A stretch of 64,000 nucleotides of DNA from the NCBI GenBank assembly GCA_964635715.1, contig CAZWNZ010000001.1, positions 408,616 through 472,615 on the forward strand. The letters are read 5' to 3'. The DNA comes from an uncultured Gammaproteobacteria bacterium (GTDB lineage: Bacteria; Patescibacteriota; Microgenomatia; UBA8517). Each line of letters opens with the position of its first letter. The first letter of the stretch is position 1. A program made the translations under genes and the position numbers. The notes beneath the pieces are model-generated. The model worked only from the letters and a program-made list of their open reading frames with translations, did no database searches and had not been told where the DNA came from. Of the stretch, positions 6,418-58,493 are shown one piece after another.

Positions 6418-6473
6418 TACAGAATATTATCAAATCTATCTAATTTATTCCAGGGTTGTGTTAAAATAGCCTC

Positions 6474-7274
6474 ATGAAGACAATCATTTTTGACGGCCGA
6501 GCCTTTGCCGAAGAAAAAAAAGAGGAAGTGAAGATTGTGGTCGCGGGTTTGAGATCTCGTGGAGTCGTGCCGCATCTTGCATCAATTTTGATAGGACACG
6601 ATCCGGCAAGCACTCTCTATGTTGGTTTAAAGAAAAGGGCGGCGGAGGGCATTGGAGCAGAACTCGATCCTTATTATCTTCCTGAAAGCACAAAGCTTGC
6701 TGATGTTTTATTGCTGATAGACTCACTTAATTTTGATGAAACTGTTCATGGCATTATGGTCCAACTTCCAATCCCAGGGGAACTAGGAAAACATAAGGAT
6801 GAGATATTAGGCGCCATAGATCCTCAAAAAGATGTTGACGGATTAAAAAATGATAGTAAATATTTACACCCAACCAGTAAGGCGGCTGCCGATATCTTAC
6901 ATTCAGCAGAAAAAGAACTAAAATTGGAAAAGAAGGGGAAGATTGCAATTGTTGGAGCAACAGGTATGGTTGGTGCGCCGCTTGTTAAAGAACTTAAAGT
7001 TGAAGGTTACAATGTTGTGACAGCGGATGGAAAGACATCTGATCTATCGGCAATCATAAAAGACGTCGATATTGTAATAAGTGCTACCGGAGTGCCGGAT
7101 TTGATAAAGCCGGAAATGGTGAAAGAGGGAATTATCGCGATTGACGTTGGCTCTCCAAAAGGAGATTTTGATCCTGAAGTTGAAGAAAAAACGGCATTTT
7201 TTACACCAGTGCCGGGAGGGGTGGGACCTGTTACAATTTCCTGCCTACTTGAAAACCTGATTGATGCCTGTTAG
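6474..7274 (+). CDS. folD: Bifunctional methylenetetrahydrofolate dehydrogenase/cyclohydrolase
   Basis: FolD N-terminal motifs are present (ILIGHDPASTLYVGLKKRA) with a Rossmann-like GATGMVG. The start ATG sits 6 nt after the TGTTAAAAT extended -10. Confidence 0.9.
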   Translation: MKTIIFDGRAFAEEKKEEVKIVVAGLRSRGVVPHLASILIGHDPASTLYVGLKKRAAEGIGAELDPYYLPESTKLADVLLLIDSLNFDETVHGIMVQLPIPGELGKHKDEILGAIDPQKDVDGLKNDSKYLHPTSKAAADILHSAEKELKLEKKGKIAIVGATGMVGAPLVKELKVEGYNVVTADGKTSDLSAIIKDVDIVISATGVPDLIKPEMVKEGIIAIDVGSPKGDFDPEVEEKTAFFTPVPGGVGPVTISCLLENLIDAC

Positions 7275-22895: not shown

Positions 22896-22917
22896 CAGAC
22901 TCCGTGAGCCAAGGCAT

Positions 22918-22995
22918 TTGTGTTAAAATAGCCTCATGGGATTATCAGTTGGGATACTTATTTCACTGTCCCAACTTTTGATTTTAGATTCTTAG
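22918..22995 (+). pseudogene. ychF: Stranded ancestral ychF promoter plus first codons (ychF-prime) at attL
   Basis: The 21-nt TTGTGTTAAAATAGCCTCATG is identical to the folD promoter/start module. The ORF begins MGLSVGI, matching the YchF N-terminus MGxxxGIVGLPNVGKS. It diverges after codon 7 into a 20-codon ORF. Confidence 0.45.
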
Positions 22996-23061
22996 TCACC
23001 CTTCCTAAGGCTAATAAAGAGAGATTGATTCTTGAACGCAATCAACTAGGACAAATTATTC

Positions 23062-23655
23062 GTGCCGAAGTCCCAGGATTACCATATAAATATGCCCAGC
23101 AACAAAATTACTAAACAAAGGACAATCGAAGAAATCAGAGGTTCTCTAGAAAGCTCAGCTACTGGATACGATTCTACTTACATACTGAGAAAGGCTGACG
23201 AGGAAATATCAAAATGTAAAAAGGAACAACTGTATACTCCCGATACTGCTTATTACAAAGCAATGTCATTGTTCGAGTTTGATAAAGGAATTTTGTTACT
23301 CAATTCTCTACCAGACCTTCATGTAGTGTTTGCATTAGATTTTAATAAAAATCTTCAAAAAGAATATGATTGTAAAACACCATCTGAAAAGTCTTTAGCT
23401 GAAATAGTTACCCTCAACTTTATAAGAATATTGGAAACACAAAGAAAGATTAAAGATTGTCAAAAAAATGTTAGTACTAGATACGATATTCAATACATAA
23501 GCATATTAAGTAAGGAGTTAGATAGAGCTGAAAGACATTACCTGGCTTCACTGCAAGCCCTCAGGACGCTTAGAAACCCTTCTTTTGAAGTGAATATTAA
23601 AGCAAATAATGCTGTTGTAGGAAACAACCAAGCGGTGCAAGTTAAAAATGCTTAA
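23062..23655 (+). CDS. Hypothetical protein (element cargo)
   Basis: A 197-aa ORF with no recognised domain. Confidence 0.45.
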   Translation: MPKSQDYHINMPSNKITKQRTIEEIRGSLESSATGYDSTYILRKADEEISKCKKEQLYTPDTAYYKAMSLFEFDKGILLLNSLPDLHVVFALDFNKNLQKEYDCKTPSEKSLAEIVTLNFIRILETQRKIKDCQKNVSTRYDIQYISILSKELDRAERHYLASLQALRTLRNPSFEVNIKANNAVVGNNQAVQVKNA

Positions 23656-23683
23656 TGATTGTTAGCAATTTAGGTTAATTTAT

Positions 23684-24106
23684 ATGTTTAGCCTTCGATA
23701 CGGAAAAAGACCAGTAATAGAAGAATCTCAAAAGATTGGGGCGGGTGTATGTGTTAGAAACTTTTTGTTTGAAACGAAGAAGAAGTACAACCTTAACAGC
23801 GAAGTTGGCGTTAAGGATTTAATAGGTGATATGGAAATTGGAACAAATATCAATCTAAAACAGGATAACTATGGCAAAGTAGACTATTCAGAACCCAACA
23901 AGATCAAATTAACCTACTCAAAGTCTAATCTTAATAAGGGTTATATATTTTGGTTTATCTGTAACCTTTGCAGTAGGCGAGTGAAGTATCTATATTTCCC
24001 CCCAAACTCAACAGTTTTGGCTTGTAAGAACTGCCACAGGTTAGTCTATAATAAGCAGAATGAAAGTAAGAGATTCAGACCTTTCAGGAAGATGTTAGAG
24101 TTGTAA
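23684..24106 (+). CDS. Hypothetical protein with C-terminal CxxC...CxxC zinc ribbon
   Basis: The C-terminus carries CNLCSRR...CKNCHR. Confidence 0.45.
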   Translation: MFSLRYGKRPVIEESQKIGAGVCVRNFLFETKKKYNLNSEVGVKDLIGDMEIGTNINLKQDNYGKVDYSEPNKIKLTYSKSNLNKGYIFWFICNLCSRRVKYLYFPPNSTVLACKNCHRLVYNKQNESKRFRPFRKMLEL

Positions 24107-24115
24107 TTAAGCTAA

Positions 24116-24526
24116 ATGCAACGACATACCTTGAAGCCAATTCTGGTTTTCAAAGATTTTAATCTTCCTTCTGAACTTTGGGTTAATAAATCTGTAAATA
24201 TATACATAAATCACAAGGGAGAAATTTATTGTGACTACTTTGTTATTAAAGATTTTACAAGAACCGAGAACTTTAAACAGAAATACTGGTTTATAAAGCG
24301 GTATTTAGACAAAAAAAGAAAAGCCTATGATGTAACTGGTATTTATAACATAACAATTGGCGATTTGAGACAAATAATGTGGAGTAAGGACATCAAGTCA
24401 ATTTCAAGAAATAGAATAGAGGGAATCGTTCATAATGAGAACCAGATAGCAAATATAAAGGATGACACGATTCAGAGACTTAAGAAATATCTAGAAAAGA
24501 AATTATCGGAGAAAAGAAATGGCTAG
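24116..24526 (+). CDS. Hypothetical protein (136 aa)
   Basis: An ORF with no recognised domain. Confidence 0.4.
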   Translation: MQRHTLKPILVFKDFNLPSELWVNKSVNIYINHKGEIYCDYFVIKDFTRTENFKQKYWFIKRYLDKKRKAYDVTGIYNITIGDLRQIMWSKDIKSISRNRIEGIVHNENQIANIKDDTIQRLKKYLEKKLSEKRNG

Positions 24527-24575
24527 ATGGAGTTAGCCAACACCTCGACTCACTATTTATATTTTGGGTATATAA

Positions 24576-25439
24576 TTGAAGTTGATGGAAGAATCACCAA
24601 TTAAAAGGTTTTTTCGAGTGTTTTTGGTAATTCTTTACTGTGCTTCTTTCCTTTTTTCCGTTTTGATAGGTTTTAGCCTTCAATCTTTTTGGTTTTTTTT
24701 GATATTCTTCCTTATTAGCTGGTTGGTAATAGATATAGTTAACATTTCCACCAAGTACATTACCTCGGGAAAGACCTCAACAACAAAAAGCTGGATATAC
24801 CGAGGTTTCTTAATACTTTTTAACTACGACTCCTTTCTTGCACTTATAAAAAATGAACTTGATGAAGTAATGGCTGATTTTTATAGCGATTTCGTTGATA
24901 AGAAATTATCGGAGCTCATGAAAATCATTCCAAAGAACAAAATTGTCAATGTATTAAAAATGGATAAGGCAGCAAGTGAACAAGAGGAACAGGCTCTTTC
25001 AAAATTGGCAGAAATTTATAAACGAACCGGTAAAGATGAGAATTTTTTTGGCACCAAGGAAAGTTGGGAGTTGGACTTGGATACTCTCAAATCACAAAAT
25101 GAATACGCAAGACTCTCGAAACAAGCTAGGGGATTCCTAAACTTGACCTCGCCACTTATGGGTGATTTTGTTTTGTTAAATCATAAATTGGATAAGGGCA
25201 AGATAAGCCTGGAGAAAGTTTATTCCAAATTGCATAAGGAAAGTAAAAAAAGATACGACCAATTTTGTAAAGATTCTGTCAATTTTTCAGTATGGGTATC
25301 CTTGAGCAATGCTTTAATAAAAGCAAAAGAAAGTGGAGTCGCTTTTGACAAAGCCAAGATTAAGAACGAAGATATTAAGGAAGAGATACAAAGTTATCTA
25401 GCGGACCAGATTTCAACCGCAGAGTCTTTGGTAATTTAA
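24576..25439 (+). CDS. Hypothetical membrane protein (2 N-terminal TM + soluble domain)
   Basis: Hydrophobic N-terminal helices followed by a charged soluble region. Confidence 0.45.
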   Translation: MKLMEESPIKRFFRVFLVILYCASFLFSVLIGFSLQSFWFFLIFFLISWLVIDIVNISTKYITSGKTSTTKSWIYRGFLILFNYDSFLALIKNELDEVMADFYSDFVDKKLSELMKIIPKNKIVNVLKMDKAASEQEEQALSKLAEIYKRTGKDENFFGTKESWELDLDTLKSQNEYARLSKQARGFLNLTSPLMGDFVLLNHKLDKGKISLEKVYSKLHKESKKRYDQFCKDSVNFSVWVSLSNALIKAKESGVAFDKAKIKNEDIKEEIQSYLADQISTAESLVI

Positions 25440-25557
25440 GGTAAAGTTCTTCAGGTACTCACCAAAGATTCGGAATATTTTTGATGTATTTAATAAGAAG
25501 TAGTTCCACTCCACACCCTAACTCACTATATTTTATTTTGAGTTATAATTAACTATA

Positions 25558-26103
25558 GTGAAAAAGATACTTCTAATTCTGTTCATTTTGGTAGTAGTTA
25601 TCGCTGGGTTATTAGTTTATAAAAATATAACCTCAAACACACAAAATACAGAAATTACAGAAGAGCTAACGAAATGCGGACAGCAAATGGCTAATGAAAA
25701 TGGGAAAGGTGTGACAGATTATGAAGGAGTTGTGATACCCGTTGATTTTTCTTCAATGCCTGAGGCAAAACTTTTTTATACTAGGATTACTGAGACTGTG
25801 AAAGATGGTCCTAATTTCGCTAAACATTTTACCTTAGTCTCTTGGGGTTGTGGTACAGATTGTTTCGGATATTCGATTGTTGACACTAATACGGGGGCAA
25901 TAGTTGCTTATATTCCTTCTAATGAAGAGTATCATTTAAGATCAAGTTACAATTTAGACACTACTTATTTCGTTTTTGATCCCGTAAATGCAGGACAAGA
26001 AAGAAAATATTACAAAATGATTGAAGATGACAAAGGAAATGACCGATTGGAACTAGTATGTTCTGAAATCGCCAAAGAGGATATATATGGATTACCTGAA
26101 TAG
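25558..26103 (+). CDS. Secreted hypothetical protein
   Basis: An N-terminal signal/TM is present (MKKILLILFILVVVIAGLLV). Conserved Cys residues are present (WGCGTDCFGY). Confidence 0.45.
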   Translation: MKKILLILFILVVVIAGLLVYKNITSNTQNTEITEELTKCGQQMANENGKGVTDYEGVVIPVDFSSMPEAKLFYTRITETVKDGPNFAKHFTLVSWGCGTDCFGYSIVDTNTGAIVAYIPSNEEYHLRSSYNLDTTYFVFDPVNAGQERKYYKMIEDDKGNDRLELVCSEIAKEDIYGLPE

Positions 26104-26117
26104 TTTTATCTCCTAGA

Positions 26118-26321
26118 TTGGGGGTGATGTTTATGAAAAAAAGACTAACTCCGATACAACAAATTTTAGTAGGTATAGGTATTTACTTGTTGTCTTCAAT
26201 AATATCTTATCCAATCAACGCAGTATTTGAAGTTGTTGGAGCAATAGCATTTTTAAGCGGGTCAATAACATTAATAGTAAATTTTTTTAAGAAGAAAAAT
26301 AATAAAAAGTTATTGAATTGA
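26118..26321 (+). CDS. Small 2-TM membrane protein
   Basis: 67 aa with two hydrophobic helices and a basic tail. Confidence 0.35.
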   Translation: MGVMFMKKRLTPIQQILVGIGIYLLSSIISYPINAVFEVVGAIAFLSGSITLIVNFFKKKNNKKLLN

Positions 26322-26324
26322 AGT

Positions 26325-26552
26325 GTGGCAAGTTATAATATATGTATGACAATTATCCACGTTCGTATTCTGGGAATAGAGGGTAATTATCGTTTTTGGG
26401 TAAGCAGGGATCCATACGAGATAAATCCAACTCCATCATATGAATCCGAAAGTTTTTATGAAACCAAGAAGGAAGCTAAAGAGGCATTGGGTAGTTTTCT
26501 GAAAGACAAAAAAGAAGATTGGGGAAAGATTGATATTAGATGGTCTAAGTAG
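26325..26552 (+). CDS. Hypothetical small protein
   Basis: A 75-aa ORF. Its start lies 4 nt after the upstream stop. Confidence 0.3.
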   Translation: MASYNICMTIIHVRILGIEGNYRFWVSRDPYEINPTPSYESESFYETKKEAKEALGSFLKDKKEDWGKIDIRWSK

Positions 26553-26764
26553 ACAAGCTCCACTGCGACTCACGATACTTATATTAGATTTTCTTGTTAT
26601 TGCTTCTACTATCAATTTTTATAAGAAGTTCAAAATAATTTACTAAATTGTTGGCTACTTCTTGTGCTTCGGTATCTGAATAAACGACTCCATAGTCTTC
26701 ACGAAATATTTTTTGAAGGCTTTTGATTAGTTTTGGTTTGAAGCGCACAATTTATTTTGGCTAT

Positions 26765-27349
26765 TTAACTATATCCATATATCATCAGACCAACTATGAA
26801 CAGCACAGATATAACAGCAATAATATAAGCAAAAGTACTTGGTTTATCTGTTTGAACAACTACAGTATCGGCCTTTTTATCGTGAAAAGTTTGTTTTTCT
26901 TCATCTTTGCCCATATTCCAATAACCAATTCCAAAAAATAGGCCAGAAAGAATTTGTAGTAATGACCTCTTTAATGCTTGCCCACCTGACAGGTGAGACC
27001 TATCCTTTTTGTCCAATACAATAAGGTTTAACAAACTCTTGCCTGGTGTTCTAGACCAAGTTGAAAGAAAAAAAATACTATAGATGACATATCCAGTTGT
27101 AAATATTAAGCCGTAAGAATCATCTGACGGCTCTCCTTCAAATAACATCAGAATGATTATTAAAAGAATCAGCAGGATGGAGTAGTCAACACAATATGCA
27201 GCCAATCTAATCCAAAAACCAGCGTATGTTACGGCCTCTTTTTTATTTGGTAAATCTTTTTCTTCGTGGTTTTGGGAGAGCTTGTTACCACAGAAACGGC
27301 AGAACTTACTGTTGTCTGGTAACTCTTTCCCACAATATTTGCAAAACAT
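26765..27349 (-). CDS. Zinc-ribbon + RDD-family membrane protein
   Basis: The N-terminus is CKYCGKELPDNSKFCRFCGNKL. An RDD-like polytopic domain follows (RLAAYCVDYSILL..., RTPGKSL). Confidence 0.6.
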   Translation of the reverse strand: MFCKYCGKELPDNSKFCRFCGNKLSQNHEEKDLPNKKEAVTYAGFWIRLAAYCVDYSILLILLIIILMLFEGEPSDDSYGLIFTTGYVIYSIFFLSTWSRTPGKSLLNLIVLDKKDRSHLSGGQALKRSLLQILSGLFFGIGYWNMGKDEEKQTFHDKKADTVVVQTDKPSTFAYIIAVISVLFIVGLMIYGYS

Positions 27350-27354
27350 AATAA

Positions 27355-27732
27355 TTATTTCTTTCCTTCCTCTTTTTTAGATTCTTCCTCAGCTTTTTCT
27401 AAAAGAGACTCTGGATTCATTTTATACCAAAAACCTCTAATAAGTTTGTAAATCCCGTAAATCATTGCTCCCCATAACACATAGTATGTCCCACCTTCCG
27501 AAGCGAAGAGCCAACCTCCACCAGTTATTACTAATCCAATAACAAACCAAATAACACCTTGCTTCATTTCACCCTCTGCTAAAGCTTTAGCTTCTTCGAT
27601 AAGTGATTGTTTTTTATTCTTGAAATATCTATCAACTGAGCCTTCCTCTTCGTTTTTAGTCATCCCTTTTCCACATTTCGAGCAGAACTTTGCATCTGAA
27701 TCGTTGTTTTGACCACAATTAGTACATTCCAT
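27355..27732 (-). CDS. Zinc-ribbon protein with two TM helices
   Basis: The N-terminus is CTNCGQNNDSDAKFCSKCGKGM. Two hydrophobic helices follow. Confidence 0.55.
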   Translation of the reverse strand: MECTNCGQNNDSDAKFCSKCGKGMTKNEEEGSVDRYFKNKKQSLIEEAKALAEGEMKQGVIWFVIGLVITGGGWLFASEGGTYYVLWGAMIYGIYKLIRGFWYKMNPESLLEKAEEESKKEEGKK

Positions 27733-27734
27733 AT

Positions 27735-28394
27735 TTATTTCCTATACTTAGATTCTGTTATCCCACCTAAATAACCCCAAAATATAAGGATAAAAACATC
27801 GGTTTTAATGCGTTCGATTAGCTCGTTTGGCAAATCTTTCACGGAATCGGATGAATCTAGTATAGTATTTAACTCATATTCAAAGAATCTGTTCATCGAA
27901 TGTTCAAGGTCAGGTAAAAATTTTTTTTGATGCTCTTCGAATTTTTGGGCTATTAAAGATTGCCACTCTTTGATAAATGGCTCAAGTTCTATGTGCTTAG
28001 GAGTTTTCAAATCCTTATTTTTTAGTAAAGCCTCAGCCATCCAGAACCAATAACCTCCACTAGCACACCATCCATAAACATTTTTTAACGTTTCTATTAC
28101 TTTATAGGGTTGTTTATTTAGCGAGTCCTTATTGTCTTGAATAAAATTCTCAAACTGGTTTGTAGAGATTCTTTTTATCAGTTCCCAAACTTCATTAGAA
28201 GATAAGTCTTCGTAGACTTTTCGCTCATCACCTGTAGAATCGTATATCTCAGCAAATTTATCCCAAAGGTCCACATTCTTTTTTGGAGCAGAAGTATCTT
28301 TTTTTGTTTTAACCTCTTTATTCACTTGCTCACCACAATAACAACAAAATTTACTATCAGGGTCTATCTGTTTATGACAATTATTACAGTCCAT
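27735..28394 (-). CDS. Zinc-ribbon protein, cytoplasmic alpha-helical domain
   Basis: The N-terminus is CNNCHKQIDPDSKFCCYCGEQV. No TM is predicted. Confidence 0.5.
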   Translation of the reverse strand: MDCNNCHKQIDPDSKFCCYCGEQVNKEVKTKKDTSAPKKNVDLWDKFAEIYDSTGDERKVYEDLSSNEVWELIKRISTNQFENFIQDNKDSLNKQPYKVIETLKNVYGWCASGGYWFWMAEALLKNKDLKTPKHIELEPFIKEWQSLIAQKFEEHQKKFLPDLEHSMNRFFEYELNTILDSSDSVKDLPNELIERIKTDVFILIFWGYLGGITESKYRK

Positions 28395-28989
28395 AATCTG
28401 CTCCTTCTATTTCCCAAACCCACCAATAGTCACCCTGTGGGTAAAAGGTTAGGGGAACCTCAAAACTAAATGCTCCATTAGATACAGCTCCGCTTTCAAT
28501 GATGGTGTTTCTGGTGTCAAAATGCTTTTTTAAGGCTTCATCGTAGTAAAAATCAAGTCTTACCTTTACATTCCGAGCAGCTTTTGAATAGGTGTTTTTA
28601 AGTATTCCTGTAAAGTAACTTTCTCCAGCATCGTCGTACAGAATTTCATAATCCGTTATAGTTAAGTAGCTTATGGGGAAGTTTGTTGGCTCAGAGACTG
28701 ATTGCTCGCTTGTAATGTTTTCATCGGTCGGTATTGCGGCAAGTATAAGTATTCCCACAAAACCCAGCCCCCCCAACACCAAAACACCGATAATTATATT
28801 TTTAAGGGAAACACCTTTCTTCTTAGGTTTGAAAATTATATCGTCAAGGTCTTCAATTTGCTCGTGTAAAGTTTTAGCTTCGCTTTTTTCGGATGCTCCA
28901 CTTTTTTTAGAAAGATCATAACCACAGTTCTGGCAATATTTACTTTTTTCTAAATTACTATAATCGCAATCGGGACATTTTGTCTTCAT
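28384..28989 (-). CDS. Zinc-ribbon, single-TM protein with extracytoplasmic domain
   Basis: The N-terminus is CPDCDYSNLEKSKYCQNCGYDL. A TM follows (IIIGVLVLGGLGFVGILILAAI), then a ~110-aa C-terminal domain. Confidence 0.55.
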   Translation of the reverse strand: MKTKCPDCDYSNLEKSKYCQNCGYDLSKKSGASEKSEAKTLHEQIEDLDDIIFKPKKKGVSLKNIIIGVLVLGGLGFVGILILAAIPTDENITSEQSVSEPTNFPISYLTITDYEILYDDAGESYFTGILKNTYSKAARNVKVRLDFYYDEALKKHFDTRNTIIESGAVSNGAFSFEVPLTFYPQGDYWWVWEIEGADYGL

Positions 28990-28992
28990 AAT

Positions 28993-29760
28993 TTATTTTA
29001 CACCAAAACTTTCTCGCCAAAAACCTATAAGATTTCTAATTCTATTTGTTGTTAGGGGGTGATCTCCCAACAACTCACTAAACTTAACAGAAGTTCTGTT
29101 TGCTGTTTTTATTTGTGATACATATCCCTTAATATCTAGTTTTTCATAGAGAACTTTCCCTATGGATATTTTTATGAGTGCTGAAATTGCACTATCCACA
29201 TCTTTTGTCGCAATCAAACCGCATCTGTCACAGGAGTATTCAGTTTTCCTATTCCAAAATCCAAAAATTAAATTACTTAAGAAATTGTTGCTTCCGATCG
29301 GTACTAATAGGGTAGAAATTTTTGTATGGCCTGCTTTGTAATGTCCCAACTCGTGCCCAATAACAAAATTTAACTCCTTTTGATTTAATTGTTCTACTAA
29401 CGCAGATGTTAGAACAACGGTGCAACTTGTAATGCCGAGTGTGTACGCTTGAAGGTATGGGTCTTGAATGATGTATAGTGAGGCCCTGTTTATTCCAAGT
29501 TTTTCAGCGTTAGTCCTAAAAGTATCGTAAATATCAGGATATTGTTTTGAATGAACTCTAATGGCATTTCCCAAATATTGTGATTGTTGAAGGTGAACAT
29601 AGATTAGGGCGCCTATCAAAAGCAGAACAAAAATATAGATATTAAATGTATAAAGAAAATAACTTATTAGAGAAATAATCAACAAGGTCACTATCAAAGC
29701 GATATTTTCGTAAGGAACACGAAACATCCAAGATTCTATTGTTGTTTTTCTATCTTCCAT
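28993..29760 (-). CDS. M48-family zinc metallopeptidase (HtpX-like), membrane-anchored
   Basis: Two N-terminal TMs are present. An HExxH motif is present (VIGHELGHYKAGH). A downstream E/D and the C-terminal GDHP...RI are typical of M48. Confidence 0.7.
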   Translation of the reverse strand: MEDRKTTIESWMFRVPYENIALIVTLLIISLISYFLYTFNIYIFVLLLIGALIYVHLQQSQYLGNAIRVHSKQYPDIYDTFRTNAEKLGINRASLYIIQDPYLQAYTLGITSCTVVLTSALVEQLNQKELNFVIGHELGHYKAGHTKISTLLVPIGSNNFLSNLIFGFWNRKTEYSCDRCGLIATKDVDSAISALIKISIGKVLYEKLDIKGYVSQIKTANRTSVKFSELLGDHPLTTNRIRNLIGFWRESFGVK

Positions 29761-29959
29761 CTTGCTTTTTAGTATTAGAGTCCTTTCTGGAAAACATTTT
29801 GTAAACCAGATAAGGGAAAAATATAAAAGATGTAAAAGTTAATAAGGTAAATAGAGGTGGCCTTTCGATACCAAAAAAGACAAAGACAAGGGTACCCAGT
29901 GCCCAAAGGACAAACGAGAGAAAAACCCCTATTATTATAGAACCTATGACTTTAATCAT
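29750..29959 (-). CDS. Small 2-TM membrane protein
   Basis: 69 aa and hydrophobic. Overlaps the M48 gene start. Confidence 0.4.
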   Translation of the reverse strand: MIKVIGSIIIGVFLSFVLWALGTLVFVFFGIERPPLFTLLTFTSFIFFPYLVYKMFSRKDSNTKKQDGR

Positions 29960-29960
29960 A

Positions 29961-30263
29961 TTAACTTTTTCTTTCTTTTATTGAATAAGCTGATATAAAA
30001 AATAAGACTGCCGAGATTAAATCTATTCCAACCCAAGAACTCTTATTCATATAAACAGGAATCAGGGGATTGAAAAGAAAGGCTAGGGCACCAAAGATAA
30101 GCACCCAACCTGTTAACTTTGATTTTGAGAACCCAATTGCGTTAAAAATTGCTACTCCGCAAACAACCCATCTGAGGATTATGTAATAGTCGTATGGCCA
30201 AATGTTTAATATTCCCAAGAGCAGAAGGACCCCAGAAATAATTGAAGGCCATTTAATATTCAT
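29961..30263 (-). CDS. Small 3-4 TM membrane protein (first gene of minus-strand cargo operon)
   Basis: 100 aa and hydrophobic. Confidence 0.45.
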   Translation of the reverse strand: MNIKWPSIISGVLLLLGILNIWPYDYYIILRWVVCGVAIFNAIGFSKSKLTGWVLIFGALAFLFNPLIPVYMNKSSWVGIDLISAVLFFISAYSIKERKS

Positions 30264-30399
30264 ATTACATATTTATAAACTGCGAACTAGCCAAATTTTA
30301 CACCCTTTTATTAGAAAAATCTAAGAAATTCGAAATCATTAGTGGTAAAATACAAATATAAACTGCCCGTGATAAACGGGTTTTTTTTGTAAATGTAAT

Positions 30400-31530
30400 A
30401 TGTCAAAGAAAGATGAAGAGATATTGTTGGCTGATGAACTCAGGAAACGGATAGATAATCTTAAGATAATTGATAAGCCTAGTCCATTTTTTAGGGAGGT
30501 TGCACGAACGGCTGAATGGATGGGTGAGATATTGTTATTTGAGCAACCACTTTTTGCCCTAGACCTTCAAAGTAAAAAGCGAGATAAAGAATCATTGCAG
30601 ATATTGAAGGATATGCACTCCAAAGGCAGAGTCATTTGGTCTGCTATAAAAAAAATACCAATTACTCTTGAAAAGACACGGCCAGAAGTTCAACAATCGC
30701 TTGCGAGTTTGCATCAGTATTACGAAATGCCACACCCTCAGTACGGAATCGGGCTATATCACAGTTTGAGGATAGTGGTTGAGTATCTTATTTCTAGTAA
30801 CAATTCAAAAGGGCTTGAGAAATTTGTAGACAGGAATAACCCCGTTAAGTATCCGAATTTTCGAGGTGAAATGTATGATCTACTAATTGCTTACAATAAG
30901 AAACAGGATTTAATAAAAAAAGAACTCGCCCTTAGTCTTTGGGGTGCTTGGGACAATCTTAAGTATGTAAGCTACCTTGCAGGAATAGATAACGACTATC
31001 CACAACTTGAAGATTGGGCTAAGGTTTTTACAAAGGATGAATACTTTGTACATCTTCACAAAGTATCAGATTACTTATTTGATTGGCTGGTGTTAGGTAA
31101 AAAAGGTGACAAATTAAGTGGTGACCCACTGCTCGAATCTGCTGTTTGGGATAAGAAATTTAATTTTGAAATTGACCCTAACACCGAAATTGATAATGCA
31201 AATTTTGGACAGTATGGAGTAGTTAGGTTTTACCCAGGTAAATCTCCAACTAAAGTGGAAGGTGATAGTAAACTAAACGCAAATCAATTATTTCTTAAAA
31301 AATTGTTTGAAGCTGGCGAGAAAGGTGTATCTAGAAAAGAGCTGGCCGAGTATATGGATATAAGAGAGAATGACATTAAAGCCTATGTTAACGGGGCCGA
31401 TAAAGTTTTTCGAAATAGTTACAAAAAACAAAAAGTTAAAGCAAATATTTACGTATCTGCAGATAGCGAGATAATTAGGTTGATTGTTATACCTGTCGAA
31501 AGTGAGAATAATCAAAATACCGAAGCTTAG
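30400..31530 (+). CDS. Hypothetical protein with C-terminal winged-helix-like region
   Basis: 376 aa. The C-terminus is LFLKKLFEAGEKGVSRKELAEYMDIREND. Confidence 0.45.
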   Translation: MSKKDEEILLADELRKRIDNLKIIDKPSPFFREVARTAEWMGEILLFEQPLFALDLQSKKRDKESLQILKDMHSKGRVIWSAIKKIPITLEKTRPEVQQSLASLHQYYEMPHPQYGIGLYHSLRIVVEYLISSNNSKGLEKFVDRNNPVKYPNFRGEMYDLLIAYNKKQDLIKKELALSLWGAWDNLKYVSYLAGIDNDYPQLEDWAKVFTKDEYFVHLHKVSDYLFDWLVLGKKGDKLSGDPLLESAVWDKKFNFEIDPNTEIDNANFGQYGVVRFYPGKSPTKVEGDSKLNANQLFLKKLFEAGEKGVSRKELAEYMDIRENDIKAYVNGADKVFRNSYKKQKVKANIYVSADSEIIRLIVIPVESENNQNTEA

Positions 31531-31566
31531 CTAATCTTCTTTTTATCTTATAACTAATCTTCTCGC

Positions 31567-31839
31567 TTGTTTTATGCTTCAGGCAAGATGTTAAATGTTA
31601 ATGAAGATAGATGGAAGAGCAAAGATTTTTATTTGAGTTGCGTTATTCGTGCCTCTGGGTTTGAACTCATAACCCTTGAAAGGAAAGAACACGACTTCAG
31701 CGTTTTTGTTTTTGACATTTCTCCTCAAAAGGCAGAAGAAATAATTTCTCTTCACTGGTCTAAACAGTTGAAACTTCCCACCAAGGATTTAGTTGAAGCA
31801 ATCAATGAATTAAGAACAAGGTTAAAAAGTGGAGTCTAA
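31567..31839 (+). CDS. Hypothetical small protein
   Basis: A 90-aa ORF. Confidence 0.35.
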   Translation: MFYASGKMLNVNEDRWKSKDFYLSCVIRASGFELITLERKEHDFSVFVFDISPQKAEEIISLHWSKQLKLPTKDLVEAINELRTRLKSGV

Positions 31840-32038
31840 TATGGAAAATTTAAATGTTATCGAAAAAGCATTGGAACTTTATGACGAAGTCGACAATTTG
31901 GCTAAGGACTGGCTAATAAAAAGTTGGAAACTAAAGGACGAGGATAAGGAGATTGCAAGATTGTATTACCAAAAGGCTTGTAAAAAGCGATTAGAACTAG
32001 CGAAAAGATTGGAGGGATTATGCAACCAGACAAAATAA
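31829..32038 (+). CDS. Hypothetical small protein
   Basis: A 69-aa helical ORF that overlaps its neighbours. Confidence 0.3.
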   Translation: MESNMENLNVIEKALELYDEVDNLAKDWLIKSWKLKDEDKEIARLYYQKACKKRLELAKRLEGLCNQTK

Positions 32039-33351
32039 CATTTGATCCAGCAAAAGATATTAAGGATTCGATTTATGAGATTACTAAAGTTGAAAAAGAA
32101 TGGGAAGAAATAACCTCGGAAGACATACTAAAAGTATTAGGTCAGACAATAAAGAAAGATGATTTTAATAAACTCCTAGTCTTTCTGTGCCAGCTTTTAG
32201 CATATTCGGAAAGTAGTCAGATAAATCTTTCTTTTAATGCTCCAAGCAGTAGTGGCAAAAGCTATTTGGCTTTGGAAATCGCAGACTTATTTCCCAAAGA
32301 AGATGTCCTTAAACTTGGTTATGCTAGCCCGACTTCCTTTTTCCATACAACCAGCGAATATTCCAAAGAAAAGAATGGCTATGTAGTGAATCTTGAAAGG
32401 AAAATTGTGGTTTTTCTTGATATGCCACACTCATTACTTTTACAGCATTTAAGACCGCTTCTAAGCCATGATGAAAAGGAAATATTAGTTAAGATTACTG
32501 ACAAATCAGCCAAGGGGGGAATAAGAACAAAAGACATTTTTATTAGAGGTTATCCTGCAGTTCTTTTTTGTTCGGCAAACTTTAACTTAGATGAACAAGA
32601 GTTAACAAGGTTCATCCTTCTTAGCCCAGAAACCAACCAAGAAAAGATAAGAGAAGCAATTTACGAGCGGGTAAAAAAGGAAGCAGATAAAGAAGGGTAT
32701 TTTAAACTCTTAAACGAAAACCCAGACAGACAAGCCTTGAAACAGAGAATTGTTGATGTCAGAGATTCTCTTGTTAGTAAAATTGATTTAGGTAACCCAG
32801 AAAAATTACTTCAGATGTTCTATGAACGCAATGAGATTCTTAAACCTAGACATTCAAGGGACATTCAACGAATCGCTTCCTTGGCCAAGGCATTTGCCTT
32901 ACTTAACCTTTGGACCCGAGAAAGAGTGGGGGATGCAATTAAGACAAATGAAAAGGACCTTGAAAATGCTTTTAAGATTTGGGACGAGATAAGTATTGCA
33001 CAAGATTTAGGGGTTTCTCCTTATATTCTTAATCTCTACAAAGAAGTTATTGTCCCCGTTTATGAAGAAAAAGGTAAAGCAGGACTAACCAGACAGGAGG
33101 TTTTGAAAAAACATTTTGAGGTTTATGGAAGACATATAGCCGATTGGCAGTTGAGGCAAGAAATAGTGCCAATAATGAAGACTTCTGGACTTATTTCTGA
33201 AGAACAGGACCCGCTTGATAAAAGAAAACTTCTTATTTACCCCCTAGTACAGCTCACTACATCTGGAGCTCAAGAAATAGTGAGTGAGAGGGGGGAGGAG
33301 GGTGTAACAGAAGCTCAAATCGAGGATATTTTTGGAGTAAAACCTATATGA
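32020..33351 (+). CDS. P-loop NTPase, possible primase/helicase-like replication protein
   Basis: A Walker A-like NAPSSSGKSYLALEIADL is present. Walker B-like VVFLDM is present. The C-terminal winged-helix region resembles the phage/plasmid primase C-terminal NTPase. Confidence 0.45.
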   Translation: MQPDKITFDPAKDIKDSIYEITKVEKEWEEITSEDILKVLGQTIKKDDFNKLLVFLCQLLAYSESSQINLSFNAPSSSGKSYLALEIADLFPKEDVLKLGYASPTSFFHTTSEYSKEKNGYVVNLERKIVVFLDMPHSLLLQHLRPLLSHDEKEILVKITDKSAKGGIRTKDIFIRGYPAVLFCSANFNLDEQELTRFILLSPETNQEKIREAIYERVKKEADKEGYFKLLNENPDRQALKQRIVDVRDSLVSKIDLGNPEKLLQMFYERNEILKPRHSRDIQRIASLAKAFALLNLWTRERVGDAIKTNEKDLENAFKIWDEISIAQDLGVSPYILNLYKEVIVPVYEEKGKAGLTRQEVLKKHFEVYGRHIADWQLRQEIVPIMKTSGLISEEQDPLDKRKLLIYPLVQLTTSGAQEIVSERGEEGVTEAQIEDIFGVKPI

Positions 33352-33557
33352 ACAAACCACTTTTACCAATAATTACATTTAAGGATATTGTTTCGGATGG
33401 AAAGAGGGTTGAAACTGCCTATTTTAGGATATTTGAGATAGCGAGGAAAAATATTTTGATGAAAAGGATGTTGACAAATCCAATGTCGCAGAAGTACACT
33501 GAAATACATAATGAAAAATCAATATCTAACAATCGAGGAGGTGGCCAAAATGCTTAG
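33348..33557 (+). CDS. Hypothetical small protein
   Basis: A 69-aa ORF. It partly overlaps the better-supported Xis-like ORF in another frame. Confidence 0.25.
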   Translation: MNKPLLPIITFKDIVSDGKRVETAYFRIFEIARKNILMKRMLTNPMSQKYTEIHNEKSISNNRGGGQNA

Positions 33558-33678
33558 AGTTAATAAAAGAACTGTATATAGATTGGCCGTAAAAGGAGAA
33601 ATTCCAGCTTTCAGGTTTGGCAGGTCTTGGAGGATAGATTCTAATAAGTTGGATGGAATATTTAAGAGAAAGAAATGA
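33511..33678 (+). CDS. Excisionase/AlpA-like HTH DNA-binding protein (55 aa), not in ORF track
   Basis: Translation gives MKNQYLTIEEVAKMLRVNKRTVYRLAVKGEIPAFRFGRSWRIDSNKLDGIFKRKK, a classic Xis/MerR-type HTH_17 fold. Its stop overlaps the recombinase start (ATGA). Confidence 0.6.
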   Translation: MKNQYLTIEEVAKMLRVNKRTVYRLAVKGEIPAFRFGRSWRIDSNKLDGIFKRKK

Positions 33679-35327
33679 AAAGCGATAATCAAATACAGGA
33701 ACCGATGAATGTTGCTCTTTATGCAAGGGTTTCAACTGGTAGGCAGGAGAATGAACAGACCATTGAATCCCAATTAGATGAAGTTAAGAGAAAAATAGCG
33801 GATGATGGTAATACTTTATTACCTCAAAACATCTTTATAGACGATGGATGGAGCGGAGAACTTCTAGCAAGGCCTTCACTTGATAACTTAAGGGATGCAG
33901 TTAAAGATAATAGTTTTGAAGCAGTTTATGTTTATGATAGAGGTAGGCTTTCCAGGACCTTCTTTCACCAGGAGCTTGTTATAAGTGAACTAAGCGATTT
34001 AGGAATCCAATTTATTTCACTTCATGATGTTAAAGCCACAACTCCTGAGGAGAAAGTCTTGCAATCAATGCAGGGGGTATTCCACGAATACGAAAGAATT
34101 AAGATTGCAGAGAGAATGAGAAGGGGAAAAATGTATCACGCAAAGGAAGGGAAAATAATAAATGGTCAGGCTTTGTATGGTTACTCTTATAAGAAAAGGG
34201 AGGATGGAAATGTAGACTACCTTATAAACGATGACGAGGCGGGAGTAGTAAGAAAGATTTGGAATTGGTTTGGAAATGATAATCTAGCCGTTCATACAAT
34301 CCAGAGGAGATTATTTGACCTTAAAATTATGCCCCAGAAGGGTAAATCTGATTTTTGGTCCAAAAGTGTTATTACCAGACTTCTTAAACAGGAAACCTAT
34401 GTGACAGGTAAGGCTTTTTATAATAAATCGGAAGCGGTTGTAGCCAAACACCCGATGAACAATGGTAAGTATAAGAAAGTTAAGAAAAGTAGTAGGAAAG
34501 TAAAGTCTCGTGAAGACTGGATTCCTTTTGATGTCCCCAGAATAATTACAGATTATTCACTTTATGAGAAGGTTCAAAAGAAACTTGAATATAACAGAGT
34601 CTATGCAAACAAAAAATCTAAATACGACTACCTACTTTCTGGTTTAATTTATTGTGGTTGTGGGAACAAAAGAGTTGGGGACGGTTGCAGCAAAAACGGG
34701 CACTTTTATTACAGGTGCATTGATAGGATTAGAAGCGGGGTATACGAGAGGAAATGCAAATCAAGTGGTATAAACGCTGCGATTTTGGATGGTCTGCTCT
34801 GGAAAGAACTAAGAAAAAAGCTTTTTAGTTACCCAATAATGAAGAAATATGCCGAAAAGTGGATTAAATCAGTATCGGTTTTAAGTAGTGAAGACTTGCT
34901 TGAGAAGCGAAGACTTAATGAAATGATAGTAAAGACTACAGAAGAAGAAAATCGTTATTCAAAGGCTTACGGAGTTGGAACTTTAGAATTCGACCAATTC
35001 CAGAATTTAATGAAAGACGCCAAAAAGCGAAGAGTTTCTTATCAAAAACAATTATCAGAATTGGCCAATAAATCGGCAGAAGTTAATGTTCAGATAGAGG
35101 TCGATGAGCTATTAGCGGAAGTGATGAGTGTGGTTAAGGATATAGATTTTAGTGATAAATTTAGGGTAATTCGAGATATAATAGACAAAGTTATCGTAAC
35201 AGAAAGGAGCGGTGCAGAAATATGTGCGCATTTACCATTACCAGTCACAATCACCGAAAAGTTGGGATATGAGCCTGAGCGTAGGGATTGTTGGCTTGCC
35301 AAATGTAGGCAAGAGCACTCTTTTTAA
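33675..35327 (+). CDS. Large serine recombinase (serine integrase)
   Basis: The N-terminal resolvase catalytic domain is VALYARVSTGRQENEQTIESQ. A recombinase domain and a zinc-ribbon domain follow (CGCGNKRVGDGC...YYRC). It has a coiled-coil C-terminus. The 3' end spans attR and overlaps ychF by 59 nt. Confidence 0.85.
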   Translation: MKSDNQIQEPMNVALYARVSTGRQENEQTIESQLDEVKRKIADDGNTLLPQNIFIDDGWSGELLARPSLDNLRDAVKDNSFEAVYVYDRGRLSRTFFHQELVISELSDLGIQFISLHDVKATTPEEKVLQSMQGVFHEYERIKIAERMRRGKMYHAKEGKIINGQALYGYSYKKREDGNVDYLINDDEAGVVRKIWNWFGNDNLAVHTIQRRLFDLKIMPQKGKSDFWSKSVITRLLKQETYVTGKAFYNKSEAVVAKHPMNNGKYKKVKKSSRKVKSREDWIPFDVPRIITDYSLYEKVQKKLEYNRVYANKKSKYDYLLSGLIYCGCGNKRVGDGCSKNGHFYYRCIDRIRSGVYERKCKSSGINAAILDGLLWKELRKKLFSYPIMKKYAEKWIKSVSVLSSEDLLEKRRLNEMIVKTTEEENRYSKAYGVGTLEFDQFQNLMKDAKKRRVSYQKQLSELANKSAEVNVQIEVDELLAEVMSVVKDIDFSDKFRVIRDIIDKVIVTERSGAEICAHLPLPVTITEKLGYEPERRDCWLAKCRQEHSF

Positions 35328-36372
35328 TGCGCTTCTAAAAAAGCAACAGGCTTATGTCGCAAACTTCCCGTTCGCGACGATTGAACCGAATATTGGAATA
35401 GTTCCGGTTCCTGACCCACGCTTGGCCAAGCTCGCAGACGTAGTAAAGAGCTCAGATAATCTTGACCATTTTCCACCGGAAGTCCCGGCTACCGTTCAGT
35501 TTGTAGATATCGCAGGGCTTATCGCTGGTGCTTCAAAAGGCGAGGGATTGGGGAATAAATTCCTAAGTCACATAAGAGAAACAAACGCAATTTGCTACGT
35601 TTTGCGAGCTTTTACCGATCCGGATGTTGTTCGCCAGGGTGTGAAAGAACCGGTTGCTGATTTCGAAGTTCTGGAAACCGAGCTTGCCCTTGCCGATCTT
35701 CAAACTTTGGAAAAACAGAAAGATCCGGGGAATACTCCGGATAAAGATCAGATAAAAAAGTGGCAAACTATCCAGAGATTAAAAAAGACATTAGAAGGCA
35801 GTACCATGGTTCGAACTATCGAACTGTCAGAAGAGGAAAATAAAATAGTTAATGAGTTGGGACTTTTAACGGCAAAACCAATACTTGTTGTGTTAAATGT
35901 TGACGAAAAGCAAGTAGCTAGTAGTCAGAATCTAGAATCTAGTTTTGCGAAGGAAATTGGGGTCGCTGAAAATCAGGTGATAGCCATCTGTGCCAAAACA
36001 GAAAGCGAGCTTTCAGAACTTTCAGAAGATGATCAGAAAATTTACATGCAGGACTTGGGAATTGACAAGTCCGGTCTTGAGAGACTAATTCAGAAAGCTT
36101 TTACAACTCTTGGCCTTGCCACATTTTTAACGGCAGGAGAAAAGGAAGTCAGAGCATGGACTATTCAAGCGGGCATTAACGCTCAGGAGGCGGCTGGGGT
36201 GATTCACACTGATTTTATTAAAAAATTTATCAAAGCCGACGTAGTCAGATTTGAGGAGTTCATTAAATCTGGCGGCTGGAAAGCCGCCCGTGAATTAGGT
36301 AAAGTTCGTTCCGAGGGCCGCGACTACATAATGCAAGATGGGGAAGTTGTGGAATTCAAGATTGGGGCGTAA
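35269..36372 (+). CDS. ychF: Ribosome-binding ATPase YchF (Obg family)
   Basis: MSLSVGIVGLPNVGKSTLFNAL is present. A TGS domain is present. The C-terminal YchF domain is present. The first 5-6 codons are supplied by the element. Confidence 0.9.
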   Translation: MSLSVGIVGLPNVGKSTLFNALLKKQQAYVANFPFATIEPNIGIVPVPDPRLAKLADVVKSSDNLDHFPPEVPATVQFVDIAGLIAGASKGEGLGNKFLSHIRETNAICYVLRAFTDPDVVRQGVKEPVADFEVLETELALADLQTLEKQKDPGNTPDKDQIKKWQTIQRLKKTLEGSTMVRTIELSEEENKIVNELGLLTAKPILVVLNVDEKQVASSQNLESSFAKEIGVAENQVIAICAKTESELSELSEDDQKIYMQDLGIDKSGLERLIQKAFTTLGLATFLTAGEKEVRAWTIQAGINAQEAAGVIHTDFIKKFIKADVVRFEEFIKSGGWKAARELGKVRSEGRDYIMQDGEVVEFKIGA

Positions 36373-45311: not shown

Positions 45312-45398
45312 GGTGGCCAAGGAGAGAGTCGAACTCTCACTGGGTGTTAGCCCAACACGATTTTGAGTCGTGCGCGTCTGCCATTCCGCCACTCGGCC
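45312..45398 (-). tRNA. tRNA-Leu (anticodon CAA), type II with long variable arm
   Basis: The reverse complement is GGCCGAG-TGGCGGAATGGCAGACGCG-CACGA-CTCAAAA-TCGTG-TTGGGCTAACACCCAGT-GAGAGTTCGACTCTC-CTTGGCC-ACC. The acceptor stem is 7 bp with one G-U. The anticodon loop is CT-CAA-AA. CC of the CCA end is encoded. Confidence 0.85.
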
Positions 45399-57695: not shown

Positions 57696-57755
57696 ACAAG
57701 GATAAATAGTAAGGGAAGACTTCCTTCTTGTCCAATTTTTTGTTAAAATAGCTTC

Positions 57756-58493
57756 ATGAGTGGACATTCTCACTTTGCCACAATTAAACGACAGAAGGCT
57801 GTTAATGATGCAGCCAAAGGAAATCTTTTTAGCAAACTTGCCCGTTCTATTATGATTGCAGCCAAGAGTGGTCCTGATCCCGATATGAATTTCAAACTCC
57901 GTTTTGAAATTGATAAGGCCAGAGCCGTCTCTATGCCCAAAGAAAATATCGAGCGTGCAATTGCAAAAGCAACAACAGAAGCCGCAAACCTTGAAGAAAT
58001 TACCTATGAAGGTTTTGGTCCGGGAGGAGTCGGAGTTATGATAGAGGTTGCAAGCGACAACAAAAACAGGACTGCACAGGAAATCGGAAATTTATTCACT
58101 AGGGCAGGGGGGAGCATGGGTGGACCCAATTCTGTTGCCTTTAACTTTGACCATAAGGGTTTTATGACTGTTGTCAAAAATGCGGATCCAGATACTCAAA
58201 TGCTTTCGATAATTGATTCCGGGGCAGAGGATATAGAAGATATAGGAGGCGAATTTGAAGTTTATACCGCTCCTGATAAGCTTGCTCAGGTTCAGAAGGC
58301 CCTTCTTGCTTTAGGTTTTGAAGTCAAAAATATGGAACTAATTATGAAGCCTAAAAACTTTATAGAAATAAATGATGCTGGAGTTGCCGCAAAAATAATG
58401 AAGTTTATTGATGAAGTTGAATCTCACGATGATGTTCAAAATGTATTTACTAATGCAGATATTCCAGATGCTATTATGAATAGTGAATTATGA
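57756..58493 (+). CDS. yebC: YebC/PmpR-family transcriptional regulator
   Basis: MSGHSHFATIKRQKAVNDAAKG is present. The start ATG is immediately after the TTGTTAAAATAGCTTC module. Confidence 0.9.
   Translation: MSGHSHFATIKRQKAVNDAAKGNLFSKLARSIMIAAKSGPDPDMNFKLRFEIDKARAVSMPKENIERAIAKATTEAANLEEITYEGFGPGGVGVMIEVASDNKNRTAQEIGNLFTRAGGSMGGPNSVAFNFDHKGFMTVVKNADPDTQMLSIIDSGAEDIEDIGGEFEVYTAPDKLAQVQKALLALGFEVKNMELIMKPKNFIEINDAGVAAKIMKFIDEVESHDDVQNVFTNADIPDAIMNSEL

Follow-up and report, generated by a model that had tools for sequence, protein, structure and literature searches.

A large serine recombinase gene that spans its own attP in an integrative element at the 5' end of ychF in Patescibacteria

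Large serine recombinases (LSRs) such as those of phiC31, Bxb1, A118/LI, TP901-1, SPbeta and phiRv1 share three domains with a coiled-coil insert, and phiC31-type elements combine an attP of ~50 bp with inverted half-sites, a non-palindromic 2-bp crossover, an intragenic attB and a small accessory gene beside int. The directionality factor of phiRv1 is an Xis-type helix-turn-helix protein. In staphylococci, the CcrAB/CcrC serine recombinases insert the staphylococcal cassette chromosome (SCC; SCCmec) at the 3' end of rlmH (orfX), a position that requires no promoter or start codon from the incoming DNA, and the ccr genes are not split by integration. Recombinase genes that are partitioned by integration, because the recombination site lies within the integrase open reading frame (ORF), belong to the SSV-type 'suicidal' tyrosine integrases (SSV1, pTN3, pT26-2) and have been described as exclusive to archaea (PMC8371274, PMC7253208). 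Here we analyse an element inserted in the 5' end of ychF, the gene of a conserved GTPase, in a stretch of 64,000 nucleotides from an uncultured member of the Microgenomatia (Patescibacteriota; assembly GCA_964635715.1, contig CAZWNZ010000001.1, positions 408,616 to 472,615), referred to below as the window. We consider it highly likely that the element is small, non-viral and plasmid-like, that it is integrated and probably still mobile, and that it belongs to a large Patescibacteria family whose LSR targets the ychF 5' end.

The ychF element resembles the phiC31 type in the features listed above for that type, and differs in that its attP lies inside the LSR ORF, so that integration alters the C-terminus of the enzyme. 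It also differs in repairing the 5' end of its target, in seeming to bring expression signals, in its Patescibacteria host range and in having no phage genes. With SCC it shares the character of a non-viral LSR island in a conserved housekeeping gene whose coding is kept, with variable cargo and a site used repeatedly to give tandem or composite arrays; unlike SCC, it targets a 5' end and splits its own recombinase gene. As in the archaeal SSV-type integrases, integration partitions the recombinase gene. Those enzymes, however, are tyrosine recombinases with tRNA-gene targets, and the split separates the catalytic domain and inactivates them, whereas here only a C-terminal tail of ~50 aa is removed from a serine recombinase that is probably still active. 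Because the enzyme is a serine recombinase and its integrated ORF keeps the catalytic, recombinase and zinc-ribbon domains, we regard it as an analogue, not a member, of the SSV-type family. A further case at the same gene, cited in PMC8637289, is a defective prophage of Streptococcus pneumoniae whose int lies immediately upstream of ychF and which controls ychF expression; its attB is intergenic (DUF951/ychF), the prophage is unrelated and no coding sequence is replaced. Our literature search found no description of the present LSR–ychF family, of self-splitting serine recombinases or of such elements in the candidate phyla radiation (CPR). What is new relative to an ordinary LSR element is the splitting of the LSR gene at its own attP, the repair of the ychF 5' end with embedded expression signals and the wide spread in Patescibacteria.

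A first-pass annotation made from the letters alone had proposed a 12.3-kb integrative element in ychF. On re-reading every sequence statement at both junctions we recovered the same element, of 12,333 bp (22953–35285; Table 1). The left junction begins, as described there, with the 21-nt module TTGTGTTAAAATAGCCTCATG, which is found again before folD at 6456–6476, and continues through ATGGGATTATCAGTTGGGATA (MGLSVGI; also read GGATTATCAGTTGGGATA) into CTTATTTCACTGTCCCAACTTTT. The right junction, AAAAGTTGGGAT-ATGAGCCTGAGCGTAGGGATTGTTGGC, lies within the 3' end of the 550-aa LSR ORF, which overlaps ychF by 59 nt. The common core of the two junctions is GGGAT (22951–55 and 35284–88). In two related loci (L013 and L023) GG is the sole core common to attL and attR, and the crossover is therefore placed on the Gly6 codon, at its two non-degenerate bases. 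Thus the insertion in the ychF 5' end stands, while its earlier assignment to codons 6–7 is replaced by a crossover inside codon 6.

The perfect inverted repeats centred on the shared GG are also present, as 11-nt arms (AAAAGTTGGGA at 35257–35267 and TCCCAACTTTT at 22969–22979), each 17–27 nt from the GG; an inverted repeat of at least 11 nt arose in 3 of 5000 random pairs of 40-mers taken from the window. The reconstructed attP of ~56 bp consists of two 27-bp half-sites with TTGGGA/TCCCAA at +/-17–22 and GG between them. Read directly from the sequences, CCAA lies at +14 in the B' arm (Leu-Pro-Asn codons, TTGCCAAAT) and at +19 in both arms of attP, in keeping with the 5-bp offset between attP and attB half-site motifs that the LI integrase model predicts for serine integrases. 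The sequence thus has an attP of ~50 bp, inverted half-sites, a 2-bp crossover and an attB motif ~5 bp nearer the centre, as serine-integrase att sites do. The B' arm of attR is native ychF, starting with the third base of codon 6. With a slash at the crossover, the predicted attB is ...TAAAATAGCCTCATGGGATTATCAGTTGG/GATTGTTGGCTTGCC... and the predicted attP ...AAAAGTTGGGATATGAGCCTGAGCGTAGG/GATACTTATTTCACTGTCCCAACTTTT.... The comparison of composition that the first-pass annotation had called for set the element apart from its surroundings: its GC content is 34.9% as against 37.7–39.1% in outside windows of the same size, and its tetranucleotide distance to the rest is 0.178 as against at most 0.103 for outside windows. 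By sequence and by comparison, the two junctions are the attL and attR expected from recombination by the LSR between attP and an attB in ychF.

Uninterrupted ychF genes, the lack of which in relatives had been named as evidence against insertion, were found in three relatives. In L038/39/40 (YchF 79% identical) the empty site reads GTGTTAAAATAGCCTCATGGGATTATCTGTAGGAATTGTTGGTTTACC, with an identical promoter module, and the predicted attB differs from it at third codon positions only; L003 (YchF 81% identical) and L042/43 (79%) have the same uninterrupted layout. Downstream of ychF, rpsF-ssb-rpsR follows in uninterrupted relatives and in the window. An exact search for the empty site and attL in metagenomes with ATGGGATTATCAGTTGGGAT (one scan) gave a chance match only, within an unrelated membrane-protein gene. 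The same comparisons bear on the view that nothing was inserted, that is, that the MGLSVGI start at 22936 is a generic promoter and short-ORF module and the LSR a gene that simply lies next to ychF on its upstream side. The word generic does fit the 21-nt promoter part, which combines an extended -10 with an ATG and is found at several genes. It does not fit the MGLSVGI-coding DNA: MGLSVGI ORFs upstream of unrelated genes had been suggested as a warning sign, and the other exact metagenome match is by chance only. Moreover, uninterrupted relatives join exactly both halves, the composition breaks at junctions with inverted arms, unintegrated P–P' junctions occur in other samples and attL sites of the same layout occur in eight other genomes. 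We regard the absence of an insertion as next to impossible.

The reconstructed attP is matched by unintegrated P–P' junctions in L004/L005/L041 and L006, AAAAGTTGGGATATGAnCCTnnnAGTAGGGAT/...GTCCCAtA..., and such junctions are present in at least four samples. The contigs that encode the homologues P0197 and P0227 read AAAAGTTGGGATATGAGCCTGAAAGTAGGGAT/TTGCATCACACCGTCCCATATTTAG and ...ATGAACCTATCAGTAGGGAT/ACGAATCTCGCTGTCCCATACTTAG, with the P arm joined to the P' arm. A single LSR lineage is found in both states, as LSRs 82–83% identical to P0197 (unintegrated, L004) are integrated at ychF in L022 and L024. L004 and L041 share 99.8% identity across the LSR and the tail and diverge 37 nt after the stop codon; the 3' end of L005 is Illumina adapter sequence (AGATCGGAAGAGC).

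Among the best LSR homologues (50–95% identical), ~115 of 120 end in ...EKLGYEPxxRDCW.AKC..., a peptide that results when the start of ychF (MxLSVGIVGLPNVGKSTLF) is translated in a different frame, and two end in a beta tail. Wherever the fetched loci hold DNA beyond the LSR end, ychF follows (23 of 23, with LSRs 45–96% identical), and nearly always its ATG precedes LSR residue 537 by ~17 nt, the position being slightly shifted in L018 and L019. The labels of these loci include Woese-, Roizman-, Collier-, Davies- and Levyibacteria. Eight other genomes (L007, L013, L014, L023, L025, L026, L031, L032) have an attL built in the same way, with a -10 box, ATG and 5–6 ychF codons up to GG and then the tail. 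Many GTDB records with the LSR-ychF-rpsF-ssb locus (L010, L011, L019, L022–L024, L031) are titled uncultured Gammaproteobacteria, one Methanofastidiosum and one Methylomirabilota; such titles probably reflect binning errors or were entered as placeholders.

The LSR has the Pfam domains Resolvase, Recombinase and Zn_ribbon_recom. Its catalytic domain (PF00239, E = 7.6e-28, residues 13–160) has the YxRVS(T/S) motif as ALYARVSTGRQ and matches the TP901-1 catalytic domain 3bvp; PF07508 and PF13408 are also matched. In the AlphaFold2 (AF2) model of P0197, long helices (386–468) lie between the zinc-ribbon strands, and Foldseek pairs the model with the SPbeta, phiC31, Bxb1 and LI integrases at E values of 5e-21 to 4e-12. 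Its mean predicted local distance difference test (pLDDT) score is 83.9, and a low-confidence linker (529–537) falls exactly at the crossover. Beyond it the tail is predicted to form strands at 542–549, 559–563 and 569–573, and the 10-residue blocks that hold the first and the third have a mean pLDDT of 87–89.

Since attP lies inside the LSR reading frame, integration splits the recombinase gene. Joining the ends of the element gives an ORF of 590 aa, the last 53 residues of which (DTYFTVPTFDFRFLVTLPKANKERLILERNQLGQIIRAEVPG...) are encoded at the left end of the integrated copy. The recombination site is inside the integrase ORF, as in other self-splitting integrases; 45–53 aa are lost on integration and 13 out-of-frame ychF residues take their place. 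A homologous tail closes the unintegrated P0197 (579 aa) and P0227 (573 aa), where the frame continues 45 codons past the crossover. The tail is recognisable at attL in L007–9, L013, L014, L023, L025, L026, L031 and L032, and its frame is open for 44–56 codons at 11 of 13 integrated attL sites as well as in the two unintegrated forms. A profile search places the tail in 237 clusters (50% identity), almost all of which represent short ORFs annotated at attL sites; in this search of representative proteins full-length LSRs stand under integrated-form cluster heads, so that unintegrated forms are not countable. As would be expected of genes in one operon, the next gene starts (ATG at 23092) before the tail has ended.

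It could be argued that the recombinase has no functional use for the tail, whose frame would be open across attP by accident and whose conservation would come from the P' arm or another overlapping DNA signal. The first ~9 tail codons do overlap the P' half-site, the integrated-form protein keeps all canonical LSR domains and the constraint on the tail is weaker than on the LSR body (non-synonymous divergence, pN, 0.12 as against 0.02). Yet codons 10–42, which lie outside the half-site, have an equal excess of synonymous change. Over the tail as a whole pN is 0.07–0.31 and synonymous divergence (pS) 0.34–0.86, a pN/pS of about 0.12–0.4 that indicates purifying selection (pS 0.78 and pN 0.12 for the window against L007; dN/dS 0.14 for L013 against L014). 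Conservation is at the level of amino acids (P, F.F, PK, R.I..R..G.I, with P, P, R, I, R, G and I invariant), third positions being saturated; the beta strands are predicted with confidence by AF2, and homologues that have diverged by 50% keep the tail. A non-functional tail is accordingly quite unlikely. From sequence and comparison the tail appears genuinely coding, as part of the 590-aa protein predicted for the circular form. A mosaic origin of tail and LSR body, considered for the window against L007, was unsupported, synonymous sites being near saturation in all genes.

The P arm carries an ATG and five codons that re-encode the YchF N-terminus, so that ychF stays intact: the protein is full length, has the MMR_HSR1 and YchF-GTPase_C domains and is 72–81% identical to YchF of Woesebacteria/Microgenomates. 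These relatives of its YchF point to a host of Woesebacteria/Microgenomates type within the CPR. The mimic reported in the first-pass annotation is present and YchF is intact, but the mimic is not strictly synonymous, as it reads MSLSVG where the stranded native start reads MGLSVG (G2S). Both variants are native among relatives. An N-terminally extended YchF starting at GTG 35212, as annotated by a gene caller in P0024, was rejected, the frame being closed six codons upstream in L011 and L012.

The LSR 3' end appears to carry more than recombinase codons. At columns with conserved amino acids in 18 LSR genes, codon diversity is 0.46–0.59 up to codon 480, 0.32 over codons 481–520 and 0.16 over codons 521–537. 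Invariant codons coincide with a TATAAT motif (GATATAAT, GAT-ATA: D501 17/17, I502 13/13) and with an AAAGGAG motif (GAAAGGAGC, GAA-AGG-AGC: E510 12/12, R511 AGG 11/11, S512 AGC 10/11); the third codon-invariant stretch is the P arm. The ATG of a short upstream ORF (uORF) follows AAAGGAG by 12 nt in the third frame, and its TGA overlaps the ychF ATG (ATGA). The Shine–Dalgarno (SD) sequence and the uORF are found in 17 of 23 loci. In L002 (4113–4320), another Woesebacteria-like contig, a decayed element has kept only LSR codons ~469–537 (the last ~200 nt) and the mimic. As this remnant is an LSR 3' segment with an element-derived ychF start, its host uses the 5' end and upstream region that the element supplied. 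On the strength of the codon-invariant motifs, the SD and uORF and the L002 remnant, we propose a cassette of promoter, ribosome-binding site (RBS) and leader that re-expresses ychF by translational coupling. After integration ychF would be transcribed from the TATAAT box within the LSR 3' end, and its translation would be coupled to that of the 16-codon uORF, which is preceded by the SD and has a stop codon overlapping the ATG of ychF.

The native promoter, for its part, is left at the left junction. Its -10 is of the extended form TGnTAAAAT, 6 nt before the ATG, and the module stands directly at the ychF ATG in the uninterrupted L003, L038 and L042. Another copy with two mismatches lies before a yebC-family gene (57738–57758); the number of copies expected by chance in the window is zero. 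At least eight other long ORFs of the window have a -10-like box 5–8 nt before the start codon, so that the module represents the usual promoter-at-start arrangement of this organism and is not specific to ychF. Further examples are at 4355, 11636, 36419, 45947, 39850 (-) and 28989 (-), rpsF being among the genes concerned. This arrangement suggests that leaderless transcripts are widespread in this genome. The native ychF promoter is presumably leaderless too and now seems to point into the element, where it may read into the left-end genes (the tail fragment and the conserved ORFs). The short peptide that would start from it, MGLSVGILISLSQLLILDS, is probably meaningless.

Table 1. Features of the ychF element and its junctions, in coordinates of the window
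Feature	Position	Strand	Description
Native ychF promoter/start module	22918-22938	+	TTGTGTTAAAATAGCCTCATG: extended -10 (TGTTAAAAT), 6 nt, ATG; stranded at left junction
attL	22924-22979	+	B arm 22924-22950 (with stranded ychF codons 1-5), GG 22951-22952, P' arm 22953-22979 ending TCCCAACTTTT
Detached LSR 3' end (tail)	22953-23114	+	53 codons and stop, DTYFTVPTFDFRFLVTLPKANKERLILERNQLGQIIRAEVPGLPYKYAQQQNY; in frame with LSR residue 537 once the ends are joined
187-aa ORF, conserved left-end gene	23092-23655	+	Homologues at same position in L007/8/9, L014, L026
140-aa Cys-rich ORF, conserved left-end gene	23684-24106	+	Homologues at same position in 7 loci
Variable cargo	24116-30263	both	Plus strand: three ORFs and two small ones; minus strand: RDD/zinc-ribbon protein, three more zinc-ribbon proteins, M48 peptidase, 69-aa ORF, DUF6804
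Backbone genes	30400-33557	+	376-aa ORF; DUF5659 31567-31839; 69-aa 31829-32038; 443-aa 32020-33351; 69-aa 33348-33557
HTH_17 gene (55 aa)	33511-33678	+	Pfam HTH_17, E = 3.7e-16; stop overlaps LSR start
LSR gene, integrated form (550 aa)	33675-35327	+	537 element-encoded residues and 13 (DCWLAKCRQEHSF) read out of frame from ychF DNA
Candidate ychF expression cassette	35177-35272	+	TATAAT 35177-35182, AAAGGAG 35203-35209, 16-codon uORF 35222-35272 (MCAFTITSHNHRKVGI, stop)
attR	35257-35312	+	P arm 35257-35283 (AAAAGTTGGGAT and mimic codons ATGAGCCTGAGCGTA), GG 35284-35285, B' arm 35286-35312
Rebuilt ychF (367 aa, MSLSVGIVGLPNVGKS...)	35269-36372	+	Codons 1-5 and first two bases of codon 6 from element

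The label plasmid-like follows from a P-loop/winged-helix protein and from the lack of virion genes. The protein in question, of 443 aa, is encoded in 14 loci, and has an invariant Walker A motif, APSSSGKS; Pfam, a PDB profile search and per-member scans gave only weak MarR/winged-helix matches, at its C-terminus, and it is a candidate replication or maintenance protein. A 69-aa backbone ORF is found in 12 loci. LSRs are typical of temperate phages, and relatives carry defence genes of the kind often seen in satellites (SIR2 in L006; CBASS and OLD-like genes in L035/L041), which could point to a prophage or phage satellite. Against this, no capsid, terminase, tail or lysis gene was found, and Pfam gave no virion, packaging or lysis family; among ten element proteins searched against PHROG there was one weak match, to a family of unknown function. 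Relatives of the LSR were absent from 2.9 million IMG/VR contigs, and related elements measure only ~7–12 kb. We therefore judge a phage origin of this kind very unlikely, and retain the plasmid-like integrative element.

In 27 loci, unintegrated forms included, the HTH_17 gene directly precedes the LSR; it encodes an excisionase-type helix-turn-helix protein that may serve as a recombination directionality factor or as a regulator. The 187-aa and 140-aa ORFs matched no family in Pfam or PHROG. Between the left-end and backbone genes, DUF6804 (in L010) is the only cargo gene with homologues in other elements, and a search for defence systems gave no match of note for the cargo of the window element. 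Four consecutive minus-strand genes (26765–28989) encode proteins with an N-terminal zinc ribbon (CxxC...CxxC), described as membrane proteins, one of them with RDD, and an M48 peptidase gene follows. A 38-nt direct repeat (24540–24577 and 25513–25550, 71% identical), ending in TATAAT, precedes the cargo genes that start at 24582 and 25558, and looks like a shared promoter region. Defence-type cargo lies in related elements or arrays, with SMODS, bacterial HORMA and AAA (CBASS-like) and OLD-like AAA_15/TOPRIM genes in L035 (2410–8446) and L041 (2976–5018) and SIR2_2 in L006 (2023–3012). The sole RNA gene found in the window is tRNA-Leu(CAA) at 45312–45398 (-), and Rfam gave no matches in or beside the element.

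The site has also been used repeatedly. Tandem attL-type junctions stand upstream of a single LSR in L032 (1153, 3940, 4784), L026 (1065, 1836) and L031 (4363, 4810), each with its own promoter box, ychF start codons and a tail, some of them truncated. Repeated use of the site is clear from these arrays; simple attP x attB events do not explain their layout. Truncated LSRs are fused to the tail within arrays in L035 and L037, the LSR remnant of L035 being 138 aa long. In L014 (11586–11610) the attR core reads GTC GCG ATT in place of GTn GGn ATn, which would give Ala at YchF position 6; it does not agree with the GG of its own attL, and may be a post-integration mutation that locks the element in.

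Such remnants raise the alternative that the window holds a fixed island, which integrated once, is no longer mobile and has been domesticated, its only role at the junction being to supply the ychF start and expression signals. Decayed copies do exist, among them L002 with ~200 nt of LSR and the mimic, the truncated tails and remnant arrays of L026, L031 and L032, and the L014 core, which is GCG and not GGN; moreover, the excised form of this exact element was not found in the metagenome scan. In the window, however, the LSR, the tail, the HTH_17 gene, the GG cores and the 11-nt arms are all intact, its composition is still distinct from that of the host, and across the family both the LSR (pN 0.02, pS 0.52) and the tail are under strong purifying selection. 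We regard a fixed island as improbable, albeit the most credible of the alternatives considered here, and favour an element that is probably still mobile, with an integrated-form LSR that is probably still active.

Several observations tell against this reading or parts of it. The exact empty site of the same strain was not found in the one metagenome scan (a chance match only). Terminal overlap was absent from all P–P' contigs examined, which could therefore be internal junctions of tandem arrays and not free circles, and L035 has a P–P'-type junction beside a truncated LSR. The integrated-form LSR keeps every domain of the LI integrase, so that the tail may be dispensable, and the HTH_17 gene shares an operon with the LSR, an uncommon arrangement for directionality factors. 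With regard to the cassette, the uORF is lacking in 6 of 23 loci, a consensus promoter scan did not call the TATAAT box, as there is no -35 there, and part of the low synonymous diversity must reflect the P arm of attP.

On the favoured reading, the circular form would encode a 590-aa LSR with a C-terminal beta-strand tail, and the integrated form 537 of those residues followed by 13 junk residues, the tail codons being left behind at attL, at a distance of 12.3 kb. Whether the enzyme has its tail or not may tip it towards one of the two reactions, integration or excision, with the HTH_17 protein perhaps acting as excision factor. We speculate, as a tentative extension that may well prove wrong, that this family is a bacterial equivalent, built on a serine recombinase, of the self-splitting integrases of archaea, and that a single stretch of ~90 bp serves as LSR codons, attP, mimic of the ychF start and promoter/RBS/leader ORF. 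On this view the swap of the tail would be a memory of state that sets directionality. Full-length LSR would then integrate, and tail-less LSR together with the HTH_17 protein would excise.

An LSR gene that spans its own attP contradicts the published claim that self-splitting recombinases are confined to archaea, and its splitting suggests a simple way of coupling the form of a recombinase to its state of integration. The overlap of LSR codons, a binding site, a host-gene mimic and expression signals is an instance of compact multi-layer coding, and the many natural LSR/att pairs for one conserved sequence may serve genome engineering. The mobile elements of Patescibacteria are poorly known; this family provides them with mapped attP, attB, attL and attR sites and with a hotspot at ychF where relatives of the element gather defence genes.

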